Below, in pieces: positions 211 to 34,130 of a stretch of DNA of 34,130 nucleotides. Under the pieces are notes generated by a model. It saw only the letters and a list, made by a program, of their open reading frames with translations, was not told the DNA's origin and searched no databases. Location of the stretch: sequence record DRR723986_7992. One strand, 5' to 3'. Both the position numbers and the translations under genes were made by a program. Within the stretch, counting starts at the first letter, position 1, and every line of letters starts with the position of its first letter.

Positions 211-789
211 TCAGGATCCGGGCAGGGCCTTCTCGATCGCGGCGGTCACGTCCGATGCAGTCGGCGGCACAGGCGTCGGGAACCAGGCAAGGATGCTGCC
301 GTCTGGCCCGACGAGATACTTGTGGAAGTTCCAGTAGGGGCGTGCCGTGGGGCCAAGCTCGCTTGCTGCCCATCGATAAAAAGGATGGGCCTTTTCGCCT
401 TTCACGACCGTCTTGGCGGCAAGTGGAAATTCGGCACCGTACTTGGCTTCGCAGAACTTTGCGATGTCGCCGTCGGCGCGCGGTTCCTGGCCGCCGAAAT
501 CGTTGGACGGAACCCCGAGCACAAGCAAGCCGCGGTCCGAATAGGTTTCATGCAGCTTCTGCAAGCCGGCCAGTTGCCCGCTGAAGCCGCATTCCGTTGC
601 CGTGTTGACGATCAGAATGGCCTTGCCGGCATAATCCTTGAGCGCAATCGGTTCGCCATAGGGCATTTCGAAGGTGAAGGCATGGGCCGACTGAGCTGCT
701 TCGCTTTGGCCCTCAAGGTCCTTGGCTTGAGCAACGGCACAAAGGCACGTTGCCGCCAGACACCAGACGAAAGAAAGAAGCCGGTACAT
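211..789 (-). CDS. gpx: Glutathione peroxidase (Cys-type) with N-terminal signal peptide
   Basis: Motifs VNTATECGF, VPSNDFGGQEP and WNFHKYLV; start moved to ATG 789 (MYRLL..., GAGGG RBS), followed by a hydrophobic leader ending AQA. Confidence 0.93.
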   Translation of the reverse strand: MYRLLSFVWCLAATCLCAVAQAKDLEGQSEAAQSAHAFTFEMPYGEPIALKDYAGKAILIVNTATECGFSGQLAGLQKLHETYSDRGLLVLGVPSNDFGGQEPRADGDIAKFCEAKYGAEFPLAAKTVVKGEKAHPFYRWAASELGPTARPYWNFHKYLVGPDGSILAWFPTPVPPTASDVTAAIEKALPGS

Positions 790-890
790 TTCAACACCCT
801 CACGCTTTGGCAATGATACGCGCCGGGGCTGGCAACAGATCACCGCGTGTGTGCCGCAGTACCTGAATGCCGGTTGCCTTCTGTCGGCCG

Positions 891-1457
891 TTACCCGCCG
901 CGGAACCCGGAACTCGACCGACTGCCGAACCCGCCACGTGAAGCGACGGAAGTCCTTGTCTGGACTTTTGCCGGCTTGGGTGGCGTCTTCACCGCATCGT
1001 CATAGGTACGCCAGCTGCCGCCGCCATAACTGCCGACGTAATAGCCGCCGGATGTGTAGTAGCGTTTGCTGCCGCGTTCCGGATAGACCGGGCGGACGTT
1101 GCTCTGGATCAGTTGGTTGGTAACGGCACCGGTCAGTGCCCCTGCCAGGAAATAACCTGCCGGAAATGGCGTGTAGTAGGAAGAGCCGTCGGTGGCACTG
1201 TCGTAGGCGCAAACGTTGTTGCCGTGTTGCTCGTTACACAGGTTGACGGTGTCATAGCGTGGTCCGGAGGCCTTGTGGATTGACTTGCCGGCGGTAATTG
1301 CCTCGACACAAACCTCGTCCGGGACGTAGCTGTCGGCGACACATTCCGCCTCGGTCTTGTAGACCCGGCCATCCAGCGTCGGTTCGTCCGAGCAGCCTGC
1401 AATGGTCACGGTCGTCGTTGCCATGACCACCAGCTTGATCGACTTGGAGCGTTTCAT
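891..1457 (-). CDS. yjfM: DUF1190 family lipoprotein (YjfM/YgiB-like)
   Basis: MKRSK.. start, IAGC lipobox, four further Cys, C-terminal SRGGFG..SSSG tail; yjf gene context. Confidence 0.85.
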   Translation of the reverse strand: MKRSKSIKLVVMATTTVTIAGCSDEPTLDGRVYKTEAECVADSYVPDEVCVEAITAGKSIHKASGPRYDTVNLCNEQHGNNVCAYDSATDGSSYYTPFPAGYFLAGALTGAVTNQLIQSNVRPVYPERGSKRYYTSGGYYVGSYGGGSWRTYDDAVKTPPKPAKVQTRTSVASRGGFGSRSSSGFRGG

Positions 1458-1547
1458 GAATTTTCTCCCGACCTTCAAACGGTCTGATGAAATGCTTTGC
1501 GTGATACGGTTCGGGGCATCAGCGCAGGGCGGCCCGTACTGCCTCGG

Positions 1548-1970
1548 TCAGTAGGTGATGCAGGCGGCGTTCAGCAGGCCGACCGTCAATGAAATGGCAG
1601 CAAGATTGGTGCTGATCGCCATTTCACCACCCTTGATCCGGTCCGTGACCTTCGGGAAGAACCTGCGGAAGACCTGGTAGACCACAAGCTGTGCGGCACA
1701 GGCGATGATGCCCCAGATGATGAAGTCGATGATACTCACGGAATTCGCCGCGGCGCTGGCCAGAGGCAACGAAAAGCCGAGGAAGGCCGCGCTGAAGACC
1801 ACCGAAGCGGCAACGTTGTTTTCCTTGATCAACGCCATTTCGTCATGCGGGGTCATGACGGTATAGATTTTCATGAAAATCAGCAGCATGACGATGGCTG
1901 TAATGAAATAGGCAATAAAAGGAACGATGCCTGAAAGGGACGCCTGAAGGTCTGCCATATTGGTCTCCAC
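1548..1970 (-). CDS. yjfL: DUF350 family membrane protein (YjfL-like)
   Basis: Four hydrophobic segments, TPHDEMALIKENNVAAS motif, C-terminal GLLNAACITY. Confidence 0.88.
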   Translation of the reverse strand: METNMADLQASLSGIVPFIAYFITAIVMLLIFMKIYTVMTPHDEMALIKENNVAASVVFSAAFLGFSLPLASAAANSVSIIDFIIWGIIACAAQLVVYQVFRRFFPKVTDRIKGGEMAISTNLAAISLTVGLLNAACITY

Positions 1971-1978
1971 TATTCAGT

Positions 1979-2626
1979 TCAGACAGAAAAATTGTGCCGC
2001 TCAAGCGGGAAGCCTAGCATGAACGCGACGCTGCGTTCCGCATTTTCCGGCTCTTCCATGTTGACGAGCAGCATTTCGTCCCGGCCGTCCTGCAGGGGGC
2101 GGGCAAAAAGCATGGCGGTCTGGAAGATCTTGCGCCTTCCGCGGCCTTCGCGGTCGTCGCACACTTCCTCCCAGTAGGTCATCGGATCTTCCGGCGCAGT
2201 CGACGTATCGAACCAGGCCCGCTCGAAACGGTAGTCGCGATCTTCGCCCGGCAGTGAAAAGCTCGTCTGGCGGATTGCGGATTTCACCCGGTTCCACTCG
2301 GTGTCGCCGGTCGGGTACTGCACGTCATAGAAGTACCACAGCATGATCTCGTCAACCCGCTCGTCGTTCTTGCCGTCGCCGCCCTGAAACTGGATCAGGA
2401 AGCGGTCGTCGTCAGGATAGAAACGATGCATGTGCGATTGTTCGCCAAGGTCGCAATGCCCCTGGGCGGTGATCATCAGCGTGGTGTCGGGACGTTCGAT
2501 CAGACTGTCGGCAGGCAGCAGGCGAAGCGCGATCGGATCGAAGGAAATGCCTCTGCCGATGGTCAGACCGAGAACTTCCGGCGGCTGCCAGCCTTTGTCC
2601 TTCTTGTTAAACAGTGATCCGAACAT
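1979..2626 (-). CDS. yjfK: DUF2491 family protein (YjfK-like)
   Basis: MFGSLFNKK start, GHCDLG..HRFY.DDD.FLIQ and QTAMLFAR motifs; lies directly upstream of the DUF350 gene. Confidence 0.8.
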   Translation of the reverse strand: MFGSLFNKKDKGWQPPEVLGLTIGRGISFDPIALRLLPADSLIERPDTTLMITAQGHCDLGEQSHMHRFYPDDDRFLIQFQGGDGKNDERVDEIMLWYFYDVQYPTGDTEWNRVKSAIRQTSFSLPGEDRDYRFERAWFDTSTAPEDPMTYWEEVCDDREGRGRRKIFQTAMLFARPLQDGRDEMLLVNMEEPENAERSVAFMLGFPLERHNFSV

Positions 2627-3662
2627 CAGCTCCCCCCAGACCGGCCGTGATCTCGCCCGCCGCGAGACGTTTGTTGGCGAGATAATAGATCGAGCCGCCT
2701 GTCTTTAACGTCTTGGGGAAAGGTCTGAACAGGAAATCCGGATCGTCCGGCTGGGAAACCGCAATCAGCGTACCTTCGGCGCCTGAAAGGGCCTGTTCCA
2801 GTTTGTCGGTTTCGGTGCCGCCCCCGCTTTGGACGATGGCCGAATAAATGGTTGCGCCGAGGCCCGCTGTGGAAAGGGCCATCAGGATCTGACCCGCGCC
2901 GGGGTCCTGCGCGGCGCGTACCAGTGCTTCGCAGGCGTTCGACACCACCGGTTCGATTCGCGCAAGGTTGCCTGCGCGCCGGGCGGTGTCACGGTCCTCG
3001 AAATAGGCCGCAATGTGAACGGTCTCGTTAAGTTCGCGAATGGCAAGGCAGGTGTTGAAGGTTTCTGCATCCGAGCCGGCGTAGACCAGCACTTTCTGCG
3101 CGCCTGGAATGGCCGCACGGCGCAGTGACTGCAGGGCGTCCATGCGTTCTGCCCGGATCAGCCGTACGCCCTCCGGCACTTCCACGTTCTTGGAGTCCGC
3201 AAGCAGAATAATCTTGTCGTCTCCGTCCTGGCCGGCAACCAGGTTCTCCACCATCAAGGGTGTCTTGTCCCGGTGATAGCCGACAATCACCGTGGCGTTC
3301 TGCACGCGCTCATAGTTTCCGTTGCCGTCAGCCATACGCCTCACTCCTTCCACAAGGACACCCGTCAACCGGCCCAGGACGGCCGAGAAAATCAGCAACG
3401 CACCCGGAAAGAACCAGAAGGCGGCCACCATCCGGCCTGCTTCCGTCGACGGAGACAGGTCGCCGTAACCGACCGTCGAGGCGGTTGTCGCGGCAAAATA
3501 GATGAAGGTCAGCGGATTGCCCGTCAGGCCTGTTTCACCAGCCAGGAAAAACAGGATCCACGAGATCACCATATAGGCGCATATCAGCGTCGCAAGCAGC
3601 CAGAGCTTGAGCTCGAGGACGTGTTGGTAGAGCCGAGAAATGATGAGTTGCAGGATTGGCAC
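2607..3662 (-). CDS. Potassium channel family protein (2-TM pore plus RCK/TrkA-N-like domain)
   Basis: Selectivity filter TASTVGYGD between two TM helices, Rossmann-like VIVGY segment; likely GTG start at 3662; overlaps the yjfK-like start. Confidence 0.88.
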   Translation of the reverse strand: MPILQLIISRLYQHVLELKLWLLATLICAYMVISWILFFLAGETGLTGNPLTFIYFAATTASTVGYGDLSPSTEAGRMVAAFWFFPGALLIFSAVLGRLTGVLVEGVRRMADGNGNYERVQNATVIVGYHRDKTPLMVENLVAGQDGDDKIILLADSKNVEVPEGVRLIRAERMDALQSLRRAAIPGAQKVLVYAGSDAETFNTCLAIRELNETVHIAAYFEDRDTARRAGNLARIEPVVSNACEALVRAAQDPGAGQILMALSTAGLGATIYSAIVQSGGGTETDKLEQALSGAEGTLIAVSQPDDPDFLFRPFPKTLKTGGSIYYLANKRLAAGEITAGLGGADVRITV

Positions 3663-3696: not shown

Positions 3697-3779
3697 ACTC
3701 TGACCAGAGCCCGCCCTATTGTCAATTCGGCATAGCTTTCCGAATAATCGCTTGAAACGGCTAGACGGGGCTTCTACTT
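3697..3779. promoter_or_regulatory. Back-to-back divergent promoters with a central palindrome
   Basis: Minus-strand TTGACA (3725-3720)-N17-CAGAGT; plus-strand CTTGAA (3751-3756)-N16-TCTACTT; inverted repeat ATTCGG-N9-CCGAAT at 3725-3745. Confidence 0.45.
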
Positions 3780-3825
3780 GTTCGAGGCCGGATCCCGGCA
3801 CCGTATTTGAAATGGAGGGCTTTGG

Positions 3826-4266
3826 ATGAGTACGCGGCAATCTCCCTGGACACTTGCGGAGCTGAAGGAAGCTCTGGAGCAATCGGATTCCTTCGCGGCA
3901 GGTGAAATCAGCTGCACGGTGAGTTCCGATCAGGCCGGCGTGCTGGAAGTCCAGCTTCACTCGGCCGGTGAAATCACACTGTTCATGGTTGTCGGCGAAA
4001 CCCAGATCCTGACGTCCACGGTTCTGTGGCCTTGCGATGCTCAGGAGGACCCGGCCTCCTTCGAGGCGATGATGCTGCGCAATCACAAGAAGCTGCTGCC
4101 GCTCTGCGCCCTGTCCATCGATATGATCGACGGACGCGAATATTACGAGCTCTTCGGCGCCATGTCCGTGCGCTCGACACTGGATTCGGTCGAGACGGAA
4201 TTGCGCACCATCGCCAACAGCGCTCTGGAGCTGGCCGCCGACGTCGGTCCCAAGGCCGCTGCCTGA
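3826..4266 (+). CDS. yjfI: YjfI family protein (DUF2170)
   Basis: HKKLLPLCAL and YYELFGAMS..S motifs; GGAGG RBS; directly upstream of the PspA homolog. Confidence 0.85.
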   Translation: MSTRQSPWTLAELKEALEQSDSFAAGEISCTVSSDQAGVLEVQLHSAGEITLFMVVGETQILTSTVLWPCDAQEDPASFEAMMLRNHKKLLPLCALSIDMIDGREYYELFGAMSVRSTLDSVETELRTIANSALELAADVGPKAAA

Positions 4267-4299
4267 TCCCGCCGCCAATTTGAAGAAGGACATTTGAAA

Positions 4300-4971
4300 A
4301 TGAGTGTTTGGGGCAAATTGATTACGGCGTTCAAGGGCCACGCCCACAATGCCGCGGAATCCGTTCAGGACGCCAACCTGATGACGATCCTTGAACAGGA
4401 AATCCGCGAAGCAAAACAGGCGATCGGTGCAGCCAAGGACGAAAAGGCGCGCATGGCAGCCAACCGCAAGCTGAAGGAAAAATCCGTCGCCGAACTGATG
4501 ACCGAAATCGAGCGGCGTACGGAAGCGGCCCGCAGTGCCAAGGCACAGGGCGACGAGCCGCTGGCCATCGAGATCATCGAGAGCGTGCTGAAACTGCGCG
4601 ACAAGGCGGAAGCCGATCAGGCTCTGTTCGATCAGTACAAGTCCACCGAAGAGCGCATGGACAGCACCATTCGGCAGTCGATGAACAAGATCGAGACCCT
4701 GCAGCGCAAGATGGAAAGCGCAAAGGCCAACGAAGCGTTGATCAAGGCCCAGAAGGCGGCCTCCACCAACACCACGGCTTCCGACGGCCGACTGGCCAGT
4801 GCGGTCGACAGCCTCGCACGCCTGGAACAGCGCCAGGCGGAACAGCAGGCCATGCTGGAAGCGGCTGAGGAAGACGCTCGCCTGGAAAGCGGCGCCGATC
4901 TGGAAGCCAAGATCAAGGCCCTGGAAAATCCGGCCCGCAACGACGTGCAGGCTCTTCTGGCGAAACTCTGA
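4300..4971 (+). CDS. yjfJ: PspA/IM30 family protein (YjfJ-like)
   Basis: MSVWGKLITAFKG amphipathic N-terminus, ILEQEIREA, long coiled coil, DLEAKIKAL..LLAKL C-terminus. Confidence 0.92.
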   Translation: MSVWGKLITAFKGHAHNAAESVQDANLMTILEQEIREAKQAIGAAKDEKARMAANRKLKEKSVAELMTEIERRTEAARSAKAQGDEPLAIEIIESVLKLRDKAEADQALFDQYKSTEERMDSTIRQSMNKIETLQRKMESAKANEALIKAQKAASTNTTASDGRLASAVDSLARLEQRQAEQQAMLEAAEEDARLESGADLEAKIKALENPARNDVQALLAKL

Positions 4972-29049: not shown

Positions 29050-29229
29050 GTGTCCCCTCTATGCGCTGGAAAAGCTGAAGAGCTCTTTTCTTAAGCCATT
29101 GTCCCGGGCGCTGAAAGGGCGGACGTGGCAGCGCAGCCGGTGTTGTAAATATCGTGCCACACCCGTGCTGATCACGATCTTGTTTTTCAAGCTCTAGCAG
29201 GTTGCGGAAAGGGGGAGGCGATGAGCGTG

Positions 29230-30342
29230 CTAACAGCCTTCTGGCTTGTCCCAAGACTTTTTTTCTAAGTAAGCAGGACGCAATGAAGGTTCGCAGAGAG
29301 GTGGCGGGCGCAATTTTCGACCAAACATATCCGTTCCAAGTATTGGAGGCCGATCTGCCCATGCCCAAGCCTGATCGAGCTGTTCCTGCTTGAGATACGG
29401 CGCGCATACCTTCTCGCCGTCAATGATGACTGAACAAAAGTCGGCTCCCGAAAGATTTATTCCGTGCAGTGTGTGATTTGCGAGATTTGCAGCACCTAAT
29501 TTTGCACCTTCAAACCTAACATTACTTAAAAAGGCGTTTGTGAAGTCTGCATAACGAAGATCGGCTCCCGTAAAATCTGTAAATCCGAAATTGGCACCGC
29601 TGAAATCAGCGAATTTGAGATCAGCTTGCGAAAGATTAGCCCACCCCAACAACGCTCTGGAGAAATTTGCACTAACAAGTTCAGCACCAATAAGTTTGGC
29701 CTTATGAAGATCGACACCAGAGAAATCTACGTCAGCCATCTTTGCTCGCGGTGCGGTTTTAAGGGGTGTAACTCCATCAAGAAAAACGCCCGTTTCACAC
29801 TTGTCTTTCTCGGCGTTCCATCCACCCATCGTTTTGCACGACAAATCCAACCCCTCCAATTCAACGCCGAGATTTATCAACGTCTCAAGGGCTTCTTTTT
29901 TTCCCGAATTGCCCCGCGCTTTGGTGGTGAGAACACTCCACGCAGAAACAATTCGTCCGCGTTCAGCCTCTTGTTGGGCAAATTCAAGTTGTCTTTTTGT
30001 GACCTCGTTAGCTTCAAGCGCCAAGGTTGTCTGTCGTTGGGTTTCTTTGAGAGCCTCAAGAGTAGCCTGATTGGCCTCTCGTGCGAGTTGCGTTTGGTGT
30101 TGGGTTTCCACAAGCGCATCACGTGTCCAAAGCGCAGAATAGATCGAAACCACAAAAGCGGCGGCAGCTATCAAGAGCGCTGCCATCTCGATCATCTTCC
30201 AAGTTCTCCAAAAACGCCGCTTTGGCCGGTTAACTGTAGCAAGATCACCTATGGGCACTTGGCCTGCTGTACCTGCTCGGAACCTAAATGGTTTTCCAGT
30301 CCGCTTAACGGTCTGTCTTTGAACCTTTTTCCAATTCCTCAT
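29230..30342 (-). CDS. Membrane-anchored pentapeptide-repeat protein with coiled-coil stalk
   Basis: Basic N-terminus, one TM (ALLIAAAAFVVSIYSALW), heptad repeats, a run of A(D/N)(L/F)xx pentapeptides; start uncertain (ATG 30342). Confidence 0.85.
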   Translation of the reverse strand: MRNWKKVQRQTVKRTGKPFRFRAGTAGQVPIGDLATVNRPKRRFWRTWKMIEMAALLIAAAAFVVSIYSALWTRDALVETQHQTQLAREANQATLEALKETQRQTTLALEANEVTKRQLEFAQQEAERGRIVSAWSVLTTKARGNSGKKEALETLINLGVELEGLDLSCKTMGGWNAEKDKCETGVFLDGVTPLKTAPRAKMADVDFSGVDLHKAKLIGAELVSANFSRALLGWANLSQADLKFADFSGANFGFTDFTGADLRYADFTNAFLSNVRFEGAKLGAANLANHTLHGINLSGADFCSVIIDGEKVCAPYLKQEQLDQAWAWADRPPILGTDMFGRKLRPPPLCEPSLRPAYLEKKSWDKPEGC

Positions 30343-30811
30343 CCCAGCCCTACAACCCAAAATTCTAGCAACTTGGAGAAAATTTCCAGCGTGAAAGTCT
30401 ATTTAAAAACAAGGACTTCGATGTCGCCAAAAGCGCTGATTGGCAAGCGCATCTCAAAGTCTCCCCCAGCATGCGCAATTGATCGGACCATACCTTCTCG
30501 AAGCCCGACCAGCTGATCTTAGTAAAGTTCAAGGCGCTCGGAAAGAAGCTAACTCGGTTTTCGCCGATGTCGATGCATGGATTGTCGTCAGTACTGTGGC
30601 TGTCAGCTCAGCTTGAGGCTTTGGTTCTGTTTGCAGGTAGCAAGAATGGCTGCTTCTTCAAGGCTCGCGTCGGGCCATTGCTGCAGTGGTGGAGAAGTCG
30701 GGAGATAATAGCTTCGAGCCTTTTGCAATGCTTTACAATATTTGGCGAATTAGATCACTATGAACGTAGTGTTCAAATTGATGGTGCTTGGACTAAATAA
30801 TTGGGATTTCA

Positions 30812-32551
30812 TTGAGCAACCTTTCAGCAATCATACAACGCGCCTTACTTTCCAAAGGCTTTTTCCCGAGGGAACTCCCGCCTGTTTTCACGACAGTTGA
30901 CTTTGGCGAACACGCCACGCCGATTTTGGCTGATTGGGAAAGCGGGAATGTGTTCAAGACAAAGAACGCTAAGGATTTCGCCAAGGTTGGTGGCAAGAAG
31001 TTCAGGGGAAAGTTAGGTTTCTCGAAAATTCCAAACGCTGAACCGGAAACAATATCAAAGCCGAAAAAGCTCTATGAGCGGCGCAATATCCACATCACTC
31101 ATCCGGTGCCGCAAGCGCTGCTGGTTCGGGAGATCGCTGAAAACTGGAAAACCATACAGAAATGGCTTTCTCGCCAGACATTCTCTGAAGATGAGATCGT
31201 GGTTTCCAGTACCAATGAGGGCGCTATCAAAGGCATAAATTTTCCACTCCACCGCGCCAAGACCGGCTTTATAGAAGCAACCGCAGATTGGCTGGTGAAA
31301 ACGGATATCACACGGTTTTATCCGAGCCTCTACACTCATTCGATTTCATGGGCCGCATATGGCAAGGATTCTGTAAAAGGTAGTCTGAAAACCTATGACG
31401 GCTCCCTCGCAGACCGACTCGATGTTCTGGTCAGAAGCTGCAATCGGAATCAGACGGTTGGAATTCCCATCGGTCCCGAGACATCCCGCATTTTGGCAGA
31501 GATCGTTTCTTCTCGCATTGACCATGATTTCAGCGCCCATTTTCTGAACGCCTCGAAAGATGGAAAGGGCATAAATCCCAAGACAGTGGATCGTCTGCAA
31601 GACGACTGGACAGTTGGCACTTCGTCGCTAGAACAGGCCGAGAACATCCTTAGTGTAATCACCAAGTGCTATCGAGAATACGGATTAGAGATCAACGGAG
31701 CGAAGACCAGTGTCACACACCTGATGAAATCCGAGAGGTTGAATTGGAAATCGGAAATAGCCTCATTTCTGTCTCATCGTCGCGGTGCATTGCATGGGGC
31801 GCGGCTTGTCGAGTTCCTGACGCTTTGCCTCAGGTTGCAACTGGACGTGCCTAGCGATCCAGTTCTCAATTATGCGCTTTCGATCATCGAAGGTCACATT
31901 TTCAGAATAGAAGATTTGGAAGCGGTGGAAACTTTTCTCCTGAAGGCCGCTGCAATTGCGCCGATTTCTCTTGATCGGATCTGCCGCATCATCCTGAACA
32001 TCGACCACGAGACCGGAAAACTTTCGAAGCGTCGTCTAGCTGGACGTTTTGTTGAATTAGCAGAGCGTCACATCGAGAACGGTTCGCTCTACGAAGTAAT
32101 CTGGTTGCTATTTACCGTCAGAGGCCTCAGGCAACCGTTCCTTTCAAAGCGCATAATTGAATTATCGGAAACTGCTCAATCTAGCGCACTTCGACTGTTG
32201 CTTTTGGATATGGATCAGCTCGGACTTTGCATTAAATCTCTGCCGAAGAGCACATGGGAGGCGGAAATCTCGGCGGACAGATGTCTATCGGATTGGACGT
32301 GGCTCTATGCTTACGAGGCTGTCCGAAAAGGCTGGTTAAGCGCAACTCCTGCGTTTTTGGGTTCTCCTTTCCTGAAGCCGATGCATTCGCGAAATGTTGT
32401 TTTCTACGATCCGAAGCGCAATGTTGCACGCTCAAGGAAAGTCAAAAAAGAGCGTGCTCAGGCGCGCAAAGCAGACAACCTCCAAGTTACGAATTTGATC
32501 CGTCTCCTAAGAGGTGTTGACCGCTTTTTCGAATTTGAAGCTGAATACTGA
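30812..32551 (+). CDS. Abi/UG-type (defence-associated, DRT-like) reverse transcriptase with helical C-terminal domain
   Basis: GFFPRELPP N-terminus, KTDITRFYPSLYTHSISW, GIPIGPETSRILAE, catalytic RLQDDW, GLEINGAKT, then a ~280-aa Leu-rich helical region; TTG start. Confidence 0.88.
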   Translation: MSNLSAIIQRALLSKGFFPRELPPVFTTVDFGEHATPILADWESGNVFKTKNAKDFAKVGGKKFRGKLGFSKIPNAEPETISKPKKLYERRNIHITHPVPQALLVREIAENWKTIQKWLSRQTFSEDEIVVSSTNEGAIKGINFPLHRAKTGFIEATADWLVKTDITRFYPSLYTHSISWAAYGKDSVKGSLKTYDGSLADRLDVLVRSCNRNQTVGIPIGPETSRILAEIVSSRIDHDFSAHFLNASKDGKGINPKTVDRLQDDWTVGTSSLEQAENILSVITKCYREYGLEINGAKTSVTHLMKSERLNWKSEIASFLSHRRGALHGARLVEFLTLCLRLQLDVPSDPVLNYALSIIEGHIFRIEDLEAVETFLLKAAAIAPISLDRICRIILNIDHETGKLSKRRLAGRFVELAERHIENGSLYEVIWLLFTVRGLRQPFLSKRIIELSETAQSSALRLLLLDMDQLGLCIKSLPKSTWEAEISADRCLSDWTWLYAYEAVRKGWLSATPAFLGSPFLKPMHSRNVVFYDPKRNVARSRKVKKERAQARKADNLQVTNLIRLLRGVDRFFEFEAEY

Positions 32552-32641
32552 ATGATAGTAGACGTCCACGAAGTTTTTATTGCTGCTATTCGAGGACGCC
32601 GCAGCAAACGGCCTCTCCCCACCCATCCTAGACACCACCCC

Positions 32642-34130
32642 TCAATGAAAATCCCGGCTCGGGAACAGCCGCTTGGCCTGTTCGCGCGGGTGTATGGCGC
32701 GGGTGCGTTGTGCGTCTGATTTCAGATGCACCGGCACGTCGTCGGTCTTGGTGGTCGTCTGGCCCAGAACGTCGTCGTTCGGGTGGCCGAGAAGCGACAG
32801 GTCGCGGGAGCGGTCTTCGATGTGGTCGGCGATCAGGTGAACGACCATGCCTTCGCGCTCCAGCCGCCCGGTGACCTTGAGGAGCCGTCCGCCGAGAACG
32901 GCGGGCCGGAATTTTTCGTACATCTTCGGCCAGACAACCACGTTGGAAACGCCGGTCTCGTCCTCCAGCGTCAGGAAGATCACGCCCGAGGCCGTGCCCG
33001 GGCGCTGGCGGGTGATCACCAGCCCGCAGACGGAAACGCGGCGCGCCTCGCGCGGGGTCAGCGCCGCCAGCCGGTCATGCGGGGTCAGATGCGGGATATG
33101 CGGGCGCAGCAGTTCCATCGGGTGGGCGCGCAAGGTCAGCCGGGTAGACAGGTAATCCTCCACCACTTCCTGCCCCAGATGCATGGTGGGCAGGAGGACA
33201 TCCGGCTCGAAGATCGCCTCGCCGTCGATGGGGTCGTTGAAGAGCGGCAGCGGTTTGGGGCTGCGGATGGTCTTCACCTGCCACAGCGCGGCCCGGCGGC
33301 TGAGCCCCATGCCGGCAAAGGCATCGGCTTCGGCCAGCCGCTCCAGCGTGGCCGGCATGACGCCGGTGCGCAGCCACAGGGTTTCCGTGTCCGGATAGCC
33401 GTTGCCGCGGGCAGCGACGATCCAGGCCGCGTCCTCCTCGCGCAGGCCCTTGATCTGGCGAAACCCCAGGCGCAGCGCCAGCGCGCCGTCGCTGCGCCGT
33501 TCCAGGGTGTTGTCCCACAGGCTGGTGTTGACGCACACGGGACGCACCTCCACCTGGTGCTCGCGGGCATCGCGCACGATCTGCGCCGGAGCATAGAAGC
33601 CCATCGGCTGGGCATTCAGCAGCGCGCAGGCGAACTCGGCCGGGAAGTGGCACTTCAGATAGGCCGAGACATAGGCCAGCATGGCAAAGGCGGCGGCATG
33701 GCTTTCCGGAAAGCCGTATTCGCCGAACCCCTCGATCTGGCCGAAGCAGTTCTGGGCGAATTCCAGCTCGTAGCCGCGCTCCAGCATGCCGGAGATGAAC
33801 TTGTCCTTCAGCTGCCCGATGGTGCCCATGCGCCGGAAGGTGGCCATGGAGCGGCGCAGCTTGTCGGCTTCCGACGGCGTGAACCCGGCGGCGACCACGG
33901 CGATCTGCATGGCCTGTTCCTGGAACAGCGGCACGCCAAGCGTCTTGCCCAGCACCTCCTCCAGCGCCTTGGAGGGGAAGGTGACCTTCTCCCGGCCCTG
34001 GCGGCGGTTGATGTAAGGGTGCACCATGCCGCCCTGGATCGGGCCGGGGCGCACGATCGCCACCTCGATGACGAGGTCGTAGAACTGGCGCGGGCGCATG
34101 CGCGGCAGGAAATTCATCTGCGCCCGGCTT
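32642..34130 (-). CDS. dnaE2: Error-prone DNA polymerase DnaE2 (ImuC), 5' end outside the window
   Basis: SRAQMNFLPR, VAIVRPGPIQGGMVHPY, TLGVPLFQEQAM, YGFPESHAA, LLNAQPMGFY, RQRPGTASGVIFLTLEDETG, terminal SRDFH. Confidence 0.97.
   Translation of the reverse strand, partial: SRAQMNFLPRMRPRQFYDLVIEVAIVRPGPIQGGMVHPYINRRQGREKVTFPSKALEEVLGKTLGVPLFQEQAMQIAVVAAGFTPSEADKLRRSMATFRRMGTIGQLKDKFISGMLERGYELEFAQNCFGQIEGFGEYGFPESHAAAFAMLAYVSAYLKCHFPAEFACALLNAQPMGFYAPAQIVRDAREHQVEVRPVCVNTSLWDNTLERRSDGALALRLGFRQIKGLREEDAAWIVAARGNGYPDTETLWLRTGVMPATLERLAEADAFAGMGLSRRAALWQVKTIRSPKPLPLFNDPIDGEAIFEPDVLLPTMHLGQEVVEDYLSTRLTLRAHPMELLRPHIPHLTPHDRLAALTPREARRVSVCGLVITRQRPGTASGVIFLTLEDETGVSNVVVWPKMYEKFRPAVLGGRLLKVTGRLEREGMVVHLIADHIEDRSRDLSLLGHPNDDVLGQTTTKTDDVPVHLKSDAQRTRAIHPREQAKRLFPSRDFH

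Follow-up and report, generated by a model that had tools for sequence, protein, structure and literature searches.

Class 1 UG/Abi reverse transcriptases (RTs) write DNA without a template, and the choice of nucleotide in their active sites is under active study. UG12, named DRT6, is reported to protect E. coli against T5 and ZL-19 in a manner that requires the RT motif (PMC9226505). The DRT6 of Sphingopyxis is described as an oligomeric enzyme that synthesizes DNA independently of a template, with the product covalently bound to protein; it is reported to act by abortive infection, to have the T5 DNA-binding protein ORF55 as its activator and to be toxic without sbcB, and its D223A/D224A mutations are reported to abolish or attenuate the ORF55-dependent growth inhibition (PMC12783706). 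For DRT4 (UG15), the 3'-terminal nucleotides are described as stacking on Tyr238 of the YIDD motif and on Tyr337, Asn124 as contacting bases -1 and -2, and Tyr125 as the priming residue (PMC12783706; bioRxiv 10.64898/2026.10.21.760695), this Tyr being reported as absolutely conserved in 174 DRT4 systems (PMC12783706). An effector RNase with an H160/D192 pair is also reported for DRT4 (bioRxiv 10.64898/2026.10.21.760695), licensed by the single-stranded DNA (ssDNA) product, a phage single-stranded DNA-binding protein (SSB) and deoxynucleoside triphosphates (dNTPs) (bioRxiv 10.64898/2026.10.21.760695; bioRxiv 10.64898/2026.10.27.754916), and the C-terminal subdomain of DRT4 is reported to bind phage SSB. 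The template-free products reported are purine-rich DNA for DRT4 and poly(AC) for Drt3b, and in both of these related enzymes side chains are reported to set the nucleotide choice (Q23/D29 in DRT4). Here we describe an RT gene found in sequence record DRR723986_7992, of which the whole stretch of 34,130 nucleotides (the window) was analysed; the active-site motif of its product reads L-Q-D-D.

The best explanation for this gene is a single-gene anti-phage DRT6 RT from a deep, monophyletic and mostly alphaproteobacterial branch carrying R-[L/M/V]-Q-D-D-W, which as a whole would follow a DRT6/DRT4-like mechanism; we give this reading a probability of about 0.78. The gene and its parts are located as follows, the wider relatives being the 115 other DRT6-like representatives that served as the comparison set for motif C.

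30812..32551, plus strand: gene for a DRT6 (UG12)-type class 1 UG/Abi RT of the LQDD branch, 579 aa, TTG start, identified from the open reading frame (ORF), the PADLOC match and the AlphaFold2 match
31220..31222, plus strand: private R137G, codon GGC, from comparison with the clade and the wider relatives
31304..31306, plus strand: motif A catalytic Asp, D165, invariant in the clade and Asp in 115/115 wider relatives; aligns with DRT4 D149
31331..31351, plus strand: YTHSISW motif, in which H176 (31337-31339) aligns with DRT4 H160 and is His in 115/115 relatives
31421..31423, plus strand: D204, Asp in 115/115 relatives and aligned with D192 of DRT4, which supplies the Asp of the RNase HD motif
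31460..31477, plus strand: GIPIGP, RT motif B region, from the ORF translation and homologue alignment
31592..31609, plus strand: motif C, R-L-Q-D-D-W, residues 261-266, clade hallmark in place of R-Y-V/I-D-D-aromatic
31685..31708, plus strand: LEINGAKT, motif D region, with K298 conserved (Lys in 115/115 wider relatives)
31742..32512, plus strand: C-terminal all-helical (alpha-Rep-like) domain, about residues 311-567, from AlphaFold2 secondary structure and the whole-length fold match to 9wy8, DRT4 and AbiK
32513..32548, plus strand: flexible C-terminal tail ending in Glu-Tyr, residues 568-579, with a predicted local distance difference test score (pLDDT) below 50 for residues 571-579

The initial annotation of this DNA had claimed an intact 579-aa ORF at 30812-32551, and the frame is indeed open for 579 codons from the TTG. 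The motifs that it quoted, RLQDDW codons included, were all recovered at the places given: K-T-D165-I-T-R-F-Y starts at residue 163, YTHSISW covers residues 174-180, GIPIGP starts at residue 217 and LEINGAKT at residue 292. The N-terminus aligns with those of the homologues in a 31-sequence clade alignment. Its statement that the three catalytic Asp residues are kept was also borne out, as D165, D264 and D265 are all present, invariant in the clade alignment and 99-100% conserved in the wider relatives. R90/R91 and K298 are likewise conserved as catalytic residues in both alignments. F169/Y170, after D165, occupy what we take to be the position of the dNTP steric gate. The protein has 367 database homologues at E<=1e-3, which together with its profile scores is well beyond chance. 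Its Pfam RVT_1 match is weak (35.1 bits; cut-off 29.6), which is why the gene appears anonymous to standard annotation.

Family membership was assessed with PADLOC profiles, a check that had been proposed beforehand, with NCBIfam and Pfam, and by a Foldseek comparison of an AlphaFold2 model, built on the 31-sequence clade alignment, with the Protein Data Bank (PDB). The best PADLOC match was Drt6 (PDLC03748; E 2.7e-143, 476.5 bits), in an alignment that pairs residues 9-555 with positions 4-500 of the 511-position profile. Lower scores were obtained with the Drt4 models (~322 bits), RT_UG30 (171), AbiK (108) and Abi-P2 (104). Drt6 was also the best PADLOC profile for four deep members of the LQDD branch (431-482 bits). 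NCBIfam contains no DRT6 model. The AlphaFold2 model (pLDDT 87.3; predicted template modelling score 0.88) has an RT core and then an all-helical domain at about residues 311-567, closed by a long basic helix (residues 541-567). The architecture is that of DRT6, in which a thumbless RT (fingers and palm) is joined to an alpha-helical repeat domain at the C-terminus. The first-ranked Foldseek match was 9wy8, "Cryo-EM structure of the hexameric DRT6" (E 8e-26; template modelling (TM) scores 0.77/0.90; root-mean-square deviation 2.9; 26% identity), followed by DRT4/UG15 (TM 0.66-0.79) and then AbiK and Abi-P2 (TM 0.51-0.62). With the Drt6 profile and the 9wy8 fold both ranking first, the UG number is UG12, and the RT is a peripheral member of the DRT6 (UG12) family of class 1 UG/Abi RTs. 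PADLOC, the model and the fold matches agree with the earlier description of a stand-alone class 1 UG/Abi RT with a helical C-terminal domain. The undescribed DRT subfamily that was suggested alongside it did not survive, because profile and fold place the RT in the already characterised DRT6.

Two other identities were considered and rejected. For DRT4 (UG15), the NCBIfam Drt4 equivalog NF041749 gave 172.7 bits against a cut-off of 450, and the priming Tyr125 is replaced by F144, a Phe in 8/8 clade representatives. For AbiK and Abi-P2, the PADLOC scores of 108 and 104 bits compare with 476 for Drt6.

The QDDW sequence is found in 121/121 proteins consisting of the query and its 120 best homologues (54-95% identity), as RLQDDW in 120 and RRQDDW in one, so that the motif is not a private mutation, a point that the initial annotation had left to be checked among homologues. 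When 150 sequences, each representing a 50%-identity cluster, were compared, R[LMV]QDDW was present in 18. All representatives that cover the motif at 35% identity or more have this form; at 34% identity or less, the x-x-DD is always a different one. Similarly, 42 of the 83 genome and metagenome loci fetched encode R[LQ]QDDW (41 RLQDDW, one RQQDDW), and identity to the query among the loci is bimodal, at 42-77% versus 25-34%. In a FastTree phylogeny restricted to sequences of 480 aa or more (123 included, 28 representatives excluded as too short), all 8/8 full-length LQDD-type representatives form one clade with support 1.0 and a stem length of 0.79 substitutions per site. Most carriers with a named host belong to the Alphaproteobacteria (for example Devosia, Rhizobium, Paracoccus, Sulfitobacter and sphingomonads), and a few to the Beta- or Gammaproteobacteria. 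The polymerase catalytic residues are invariant across the clade down to 33% identity. The LQDDW hairpin is kept by selection, and in the copy described here only two of 202 highly conserved positions differ. Several truncated or frameshifted copies were also seen in the clade: L047 is frameshifted, while L048, L051 and L079 match only N-terminal parts, and these are probably decayed genes.

The canonical Y-x-D-D with a hydrophobic x is replaced in this RT by L-Q-D-D. The solved relatives read RYVDDF (DRT6, 9wy8), RYIDDY (DRT4) and RYVDDV (Drt3b) at motif C, and to this extent the statement of the initial annotation that relatives normally have YxDD stands; the aromatic residue is not strict, however, since Tyr occupies the first position in only 52 of the 115 wider relatives (Phe 23, His 19, Asn 7, Leu 4, Val 3, others 7). 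We know of no source that makes the Tyr of YxDD a formal criterion for UG12. As the first position varies within the family, Leu by itself is unremarkable. The x position is Val in 59 and Ile in 26 of the 115 and is never Gln, and the residue after DD is Tyr in 58, Phe in 26 and Trp in only three. In these alignments the hallmark of the branch is Gln263 and Trp266 together, within the LQDD clade. Further residues restricted to the clade are E89, H97, D127, Y183, V188, N211, G291 and G296. Judged by sequence conservation, the LQDD branch is a conserved, clade-defining active-site variant within DRT6. A text search of the paper collection used returned none with "LQDD" together with "reverse transcriptase", and the 15 best-ranked of 74 papers with "LQDD" were unrelated to RTs.

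Several observations weigh against the reading adopted here. On the Drt6 profile, six YxDD-type representatives outscore the four LQDD members (524-596 versus 431-482 bits), and two of these six match PADLOC models named Drt4 slightly better than Drt6; since LQDD members score below their YxDD relatives, the branch is peripheral to DRT6, not outside it. The characterised DRT6 proteins all lie outside the LQDD branch, at only 26-30% identity to it. The tree is midpoint-rooted without an outgroup, and the LQDD clade is nested in it beside FVDD and NIDD sequences. As regards mechanism, the position of the DRT4 priming Tyr125 is F144 here, with no Tyr between residues 88 and 170, and in the sources cited an effector RNase is known for DRT4 only (bioRxiv 10.64898/2026.10.21.760695; bioRxiv 10.64898/2026.10.27.754916). 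Finally, the copy in the window differs from the clade consensus at two of the 202 positions with conservation of 90% or more, Y17F and R137G. Residue 137 is Arg in 99% of clade homologues, in 98/115 wider relatives and in all nine closest homologues, and R137G may weaken this copy.

The gene lies in a low-GC (guanine plus cytosine) islet with only one other gene.

29146..32599, no strand assigned: low-GC islet, 3,454 bp, with GC of ~0.46-0.51 against 0.60-0.70 in the flanks
29230..30360, minus strand: pentapeptide-repeat protein gene, the only other islet gene, divergent from the RT gene (Pfam Pentapeptide, 86.7 bits)
490-1296 (minus strand), 1445-2026 (minus strand), 2051-3220 (minus strand) and 3699-4394 (plus strand), in locus L011 of genome G001: cargo ORFs at the same site

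An aldo/keto reductase gene flanks the islet on one side and a DNA polymerase III alpha-type gene on the other. The latter, at 32642-34129 on the minus strand, is the C-terminal part of such a gene, with finger, HHH_6 and OB domains, and runs past the end of the window. In G001, the nearest genome compared, both flanks are present (96% and 98% identity) with 4.3 kb of different DNA between them (L011, G001:C1:1808800-1813600); this cargo encodes a Schlafen AlbA_2-domain protein and three ORFs without a Pfam match. With different cargo at the same site, the site behaves as a small variable hotspot, possibly one for defence genes. No flanking repeats or tRNA that could serve as an integration site were found at the islet. 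A full-length gene was detected with the Drt6 profile in one of 41 related genomes. Patchy distribution, low GC and different cargo at the site together indicate a horizontally moving gene, and the neighbour comparison below a solitary one.

The pentapeptide ORF encodes 376 aa with a hydrophobic N-terminal segment, and its true start codon is uncertain. It had no PADLOC match, and its NCBIfam Qnr, HetL and PipB matches were far below the cut-offs. As a partner of the RT it was rejected, as no relative was found in 91 loci, three further loci and a metagenome scan. Across 33 LQDD loci, no neighbour family was common to more than six, and the one that reached this number was ThiC, a housekeeping gene common to the sphingomonad loci. 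An Rfam search for non-coding RNA (ncRNA) gave only one sub-threshold chance match, inside the ORF; the 451-nt upstream spacer showed no conserved DNA when compared with other loci (best E 1.2), and a scan for promoters and terminators gave counts no higher than in shuffled sequence. Neither a conserved partner protein nor an ncRNA was thus found in the loci, Rfam and spacer comparisons, as is characteristic of a single-gene system. In two other LQDD loci, from a Paracoccaceae genome (L014:2679-5955) and from Nitratireductor (L016, same arrangement), the RT is preceded by genes for DEAD/ResIII helicase-like and T5orf172/MUG113-domain proteins, which hints at a defence island there. What the analysis shows directly for the gene and its relatives is the family, the fold, the sequence conservation, the structure of the clade and the solitary setting.

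The biochemical steps of the model that follows, and any effect of the motif, are ones that we infer. The RT most likely acts by abortive infection with protein-primed, untemplated ssDNA, as DRT6 and DRT4 do. In this reading the gene arrived by horizontal transfer on the small islet at its variable chromosomal site. By homology, the RT would form a hexamer in which a protein hydroxyl group primes template-independent synthesis of ssDNA, and the product would stay attached to the RT. A host 3'-5' exonuclease probably keeps this product short. On infection, a phage ssDNA-binding protein would bind the ssDNA product, and the infected cell would as a result stop growing or die. The trigger may act through an RNase site, as that of DRT4 is switched on in this way and the H176/D204 pair is conserved here. 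Because the Tyr of YxDD in DRT4 stacks on the 3'-terminal base, the LQDD branch would have to hold the primer end differently. Ser125, invariant in the clade and located in a coil segment of the AlphaFold2 model, is our guess for a candidate priming residue.

Beyond this model, the R-L-Q-D-D-W branch, which lacks the stacking Tyr and has an invariant Gln and Trp on the two sides of its catalytic hairpin, could be a functionally distinct DRT6 offshoot that positions primer end and incoming nucleotide differently, makes protein-primed DNA of another composition or length, uses a priming residue not of the DRT4 type (with Ser125, in a surface loop, as candidate) and carries an [Asp/Glu]-Tyr tail that is maybe a mimic of the SSB tip; we advance this only tentatively and consider it unlikely in full. 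A terminal Tyr is shared by 98 of the 110 full-length homologues (63 in EY, 23 in DY). Of the 115 YxDD-type DRT6-like representatives, 54 have Tyr or Phe as their last residue, and one has the C-terminus ...EIPF, which resembles the tip of bacterial SSB. The tail may serve for docking or sensing in the manner of the SSB tip, and such mimicry may attract a host exonuclease or allow recognition by phage SSB.

It is improbable, in our estimation, that the LQDD branch is a functionally separate DRT type, the stronger form of what the initial annotation had suggested (changed primer handling or nucleotide selectivity and a distinct DNA product). Here the altered active site, with the stacking Tyr gone and a polar Gln beside the primer end or the incoming nucleotide, would yield a DNA product of other composition or length, perhaps from another priming residue. 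The invariant Gln at x and Trp after DD, seen outside the branch in 0/115 and 3/115, speak for it, as do the eight clade-only residues that accompany the motif (E89, H97, D127, Y183, V188, N211, G291 and G296), the long stem in the tree and the lack of any paper linking "LQDD" with reverse transcriptase in the text search. The reported stacking of the DRT4 motif Tyr on the 3'-terminal bases, and the reported control of nucleotides by side chains in DRT4 (Q23/D29) and Drt3b, point in the same direction. Profile and fold, however, both fall within DRT6, and as the family naturally varies at the aromatic position, loss of the Tyr need not change the product.

We regard as very unlikely that the copy in the window is impaired or starting to decay, or that the branch has given up polymerisation and acts via its other conserved sites. 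R137G is private at a 99%-conserved Arg, and the decayed or truncated copies (L047, L048, L051 and L079) show that such losses exist in the clade; the frame is nevertheless intact, only two of 202 conserved positions differ, and the invariance of the catalytic residues down to 33% identity argues for continued selection on polymerase activity. A domesticated RT with a non-defence cellular role, for which there is nothing specific beyond the housekeeping neighbours (aldo/keto reductase and DNA polymerase III alpha-type genes), we dismiss as barely credible, given the patchy occurrence (a full-length Drt6 gene in 1/41 relatives), the low-GC islet, whose site holds other cargo in the nearest genome, neighbours that differ in every lineage and the anti-phage activity reported for the family (PMC9226505).

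The preferred reading of a single-gene anti-phage DRT6 RT builds on what was already known, namely the DRT6 family and its defence; what appears to be new is the conserved LQDDW branch, from which we infer that a distinct DNA product could arise. The branch is a natural, strongly conserved active-site variant in a family with a solved structure, and its members account for over 120 protein clusters and for 42 of the loci fetched from genomes and metagenomes. With the primer-stacking Tyr replaced and a polar Gln adjacent, it offers a direct comparison of LQDDW with YVDD. If the products prove the same, the family tolerates the change and annotation pipelines can keep the DRT6 name.

Among known systems, the most distant comparison is human TERT, whose motif C is L-V-D-D and which is a natural RT with Leu before x-D-D; it is of an unrelated lineage, RNA-templated, and has Val and not Gln at x. 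Drt3b (UG8, DRT3; PDB 9z6y) aligns in the palm region (E 2.3e-17, residues 158-300) and is reported to polymerise without a template, its side chains dictating which nucleotides are used, but it has RYVDDV and is described as functioning within a 6:6:6 assembly that also contains Drt3a and an ncRNA. Partners of this type (Drt3a, ncRNA) were not found at the LQDD loci by neighbour comparison and Rfam. AbiK and Abi-P2 (Lactococcus and P2-like prophages; 7r06-7r08), reported to be protein-primed, template-independent polymerases, share the class 1 assignment, the YTHS motif and the helical C-terminal domain, whereas the similarity is much weaker (PADLOC 108/104 bits; TM 0.51-0.62).

The Sphingopyxis sp. 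DRT6 (PDB 9wy8) has the same single-gene organisation, with an RT and a helical C-terminal domain, and the motifs FYPxxYTHxxxW, QTxGxPxGP, xNxxKT and FYD are shared in the alignment. It differs in overall sequence (~26-30% identity) and in motif C, which is R-Y-V-D-D-F in 9wy8 and R-L-Q-D-D-W here. The LQDD branch is also ~40-50 residues longer, with extra Lys-rich sequence at about 45-80 and 240-258. DRT4 (UG15, E. coli; 9vdo, 9l9s and 21ou) has the same class 1 fold, with the motif A Asp and the DD pair aligned. Based on a phmmer alignment, DRT4 D149, the metal-B ligand, corresponds to D165, R75 to R91 and N124 to N143, and the RNase pair H160/D192 corresponds to H176/D204, which is 100% conserved in the clade and the 115 relatives. 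In contrast, motif C of DRT4 is YIDD, the Tyr238 of which stacks on the primer end and corresponds to Leu262. By these equivalences the polymerase and putative RNase residues are kept in the LQDD branch, and the DRT4 primer-end platform and priming site are not retained.

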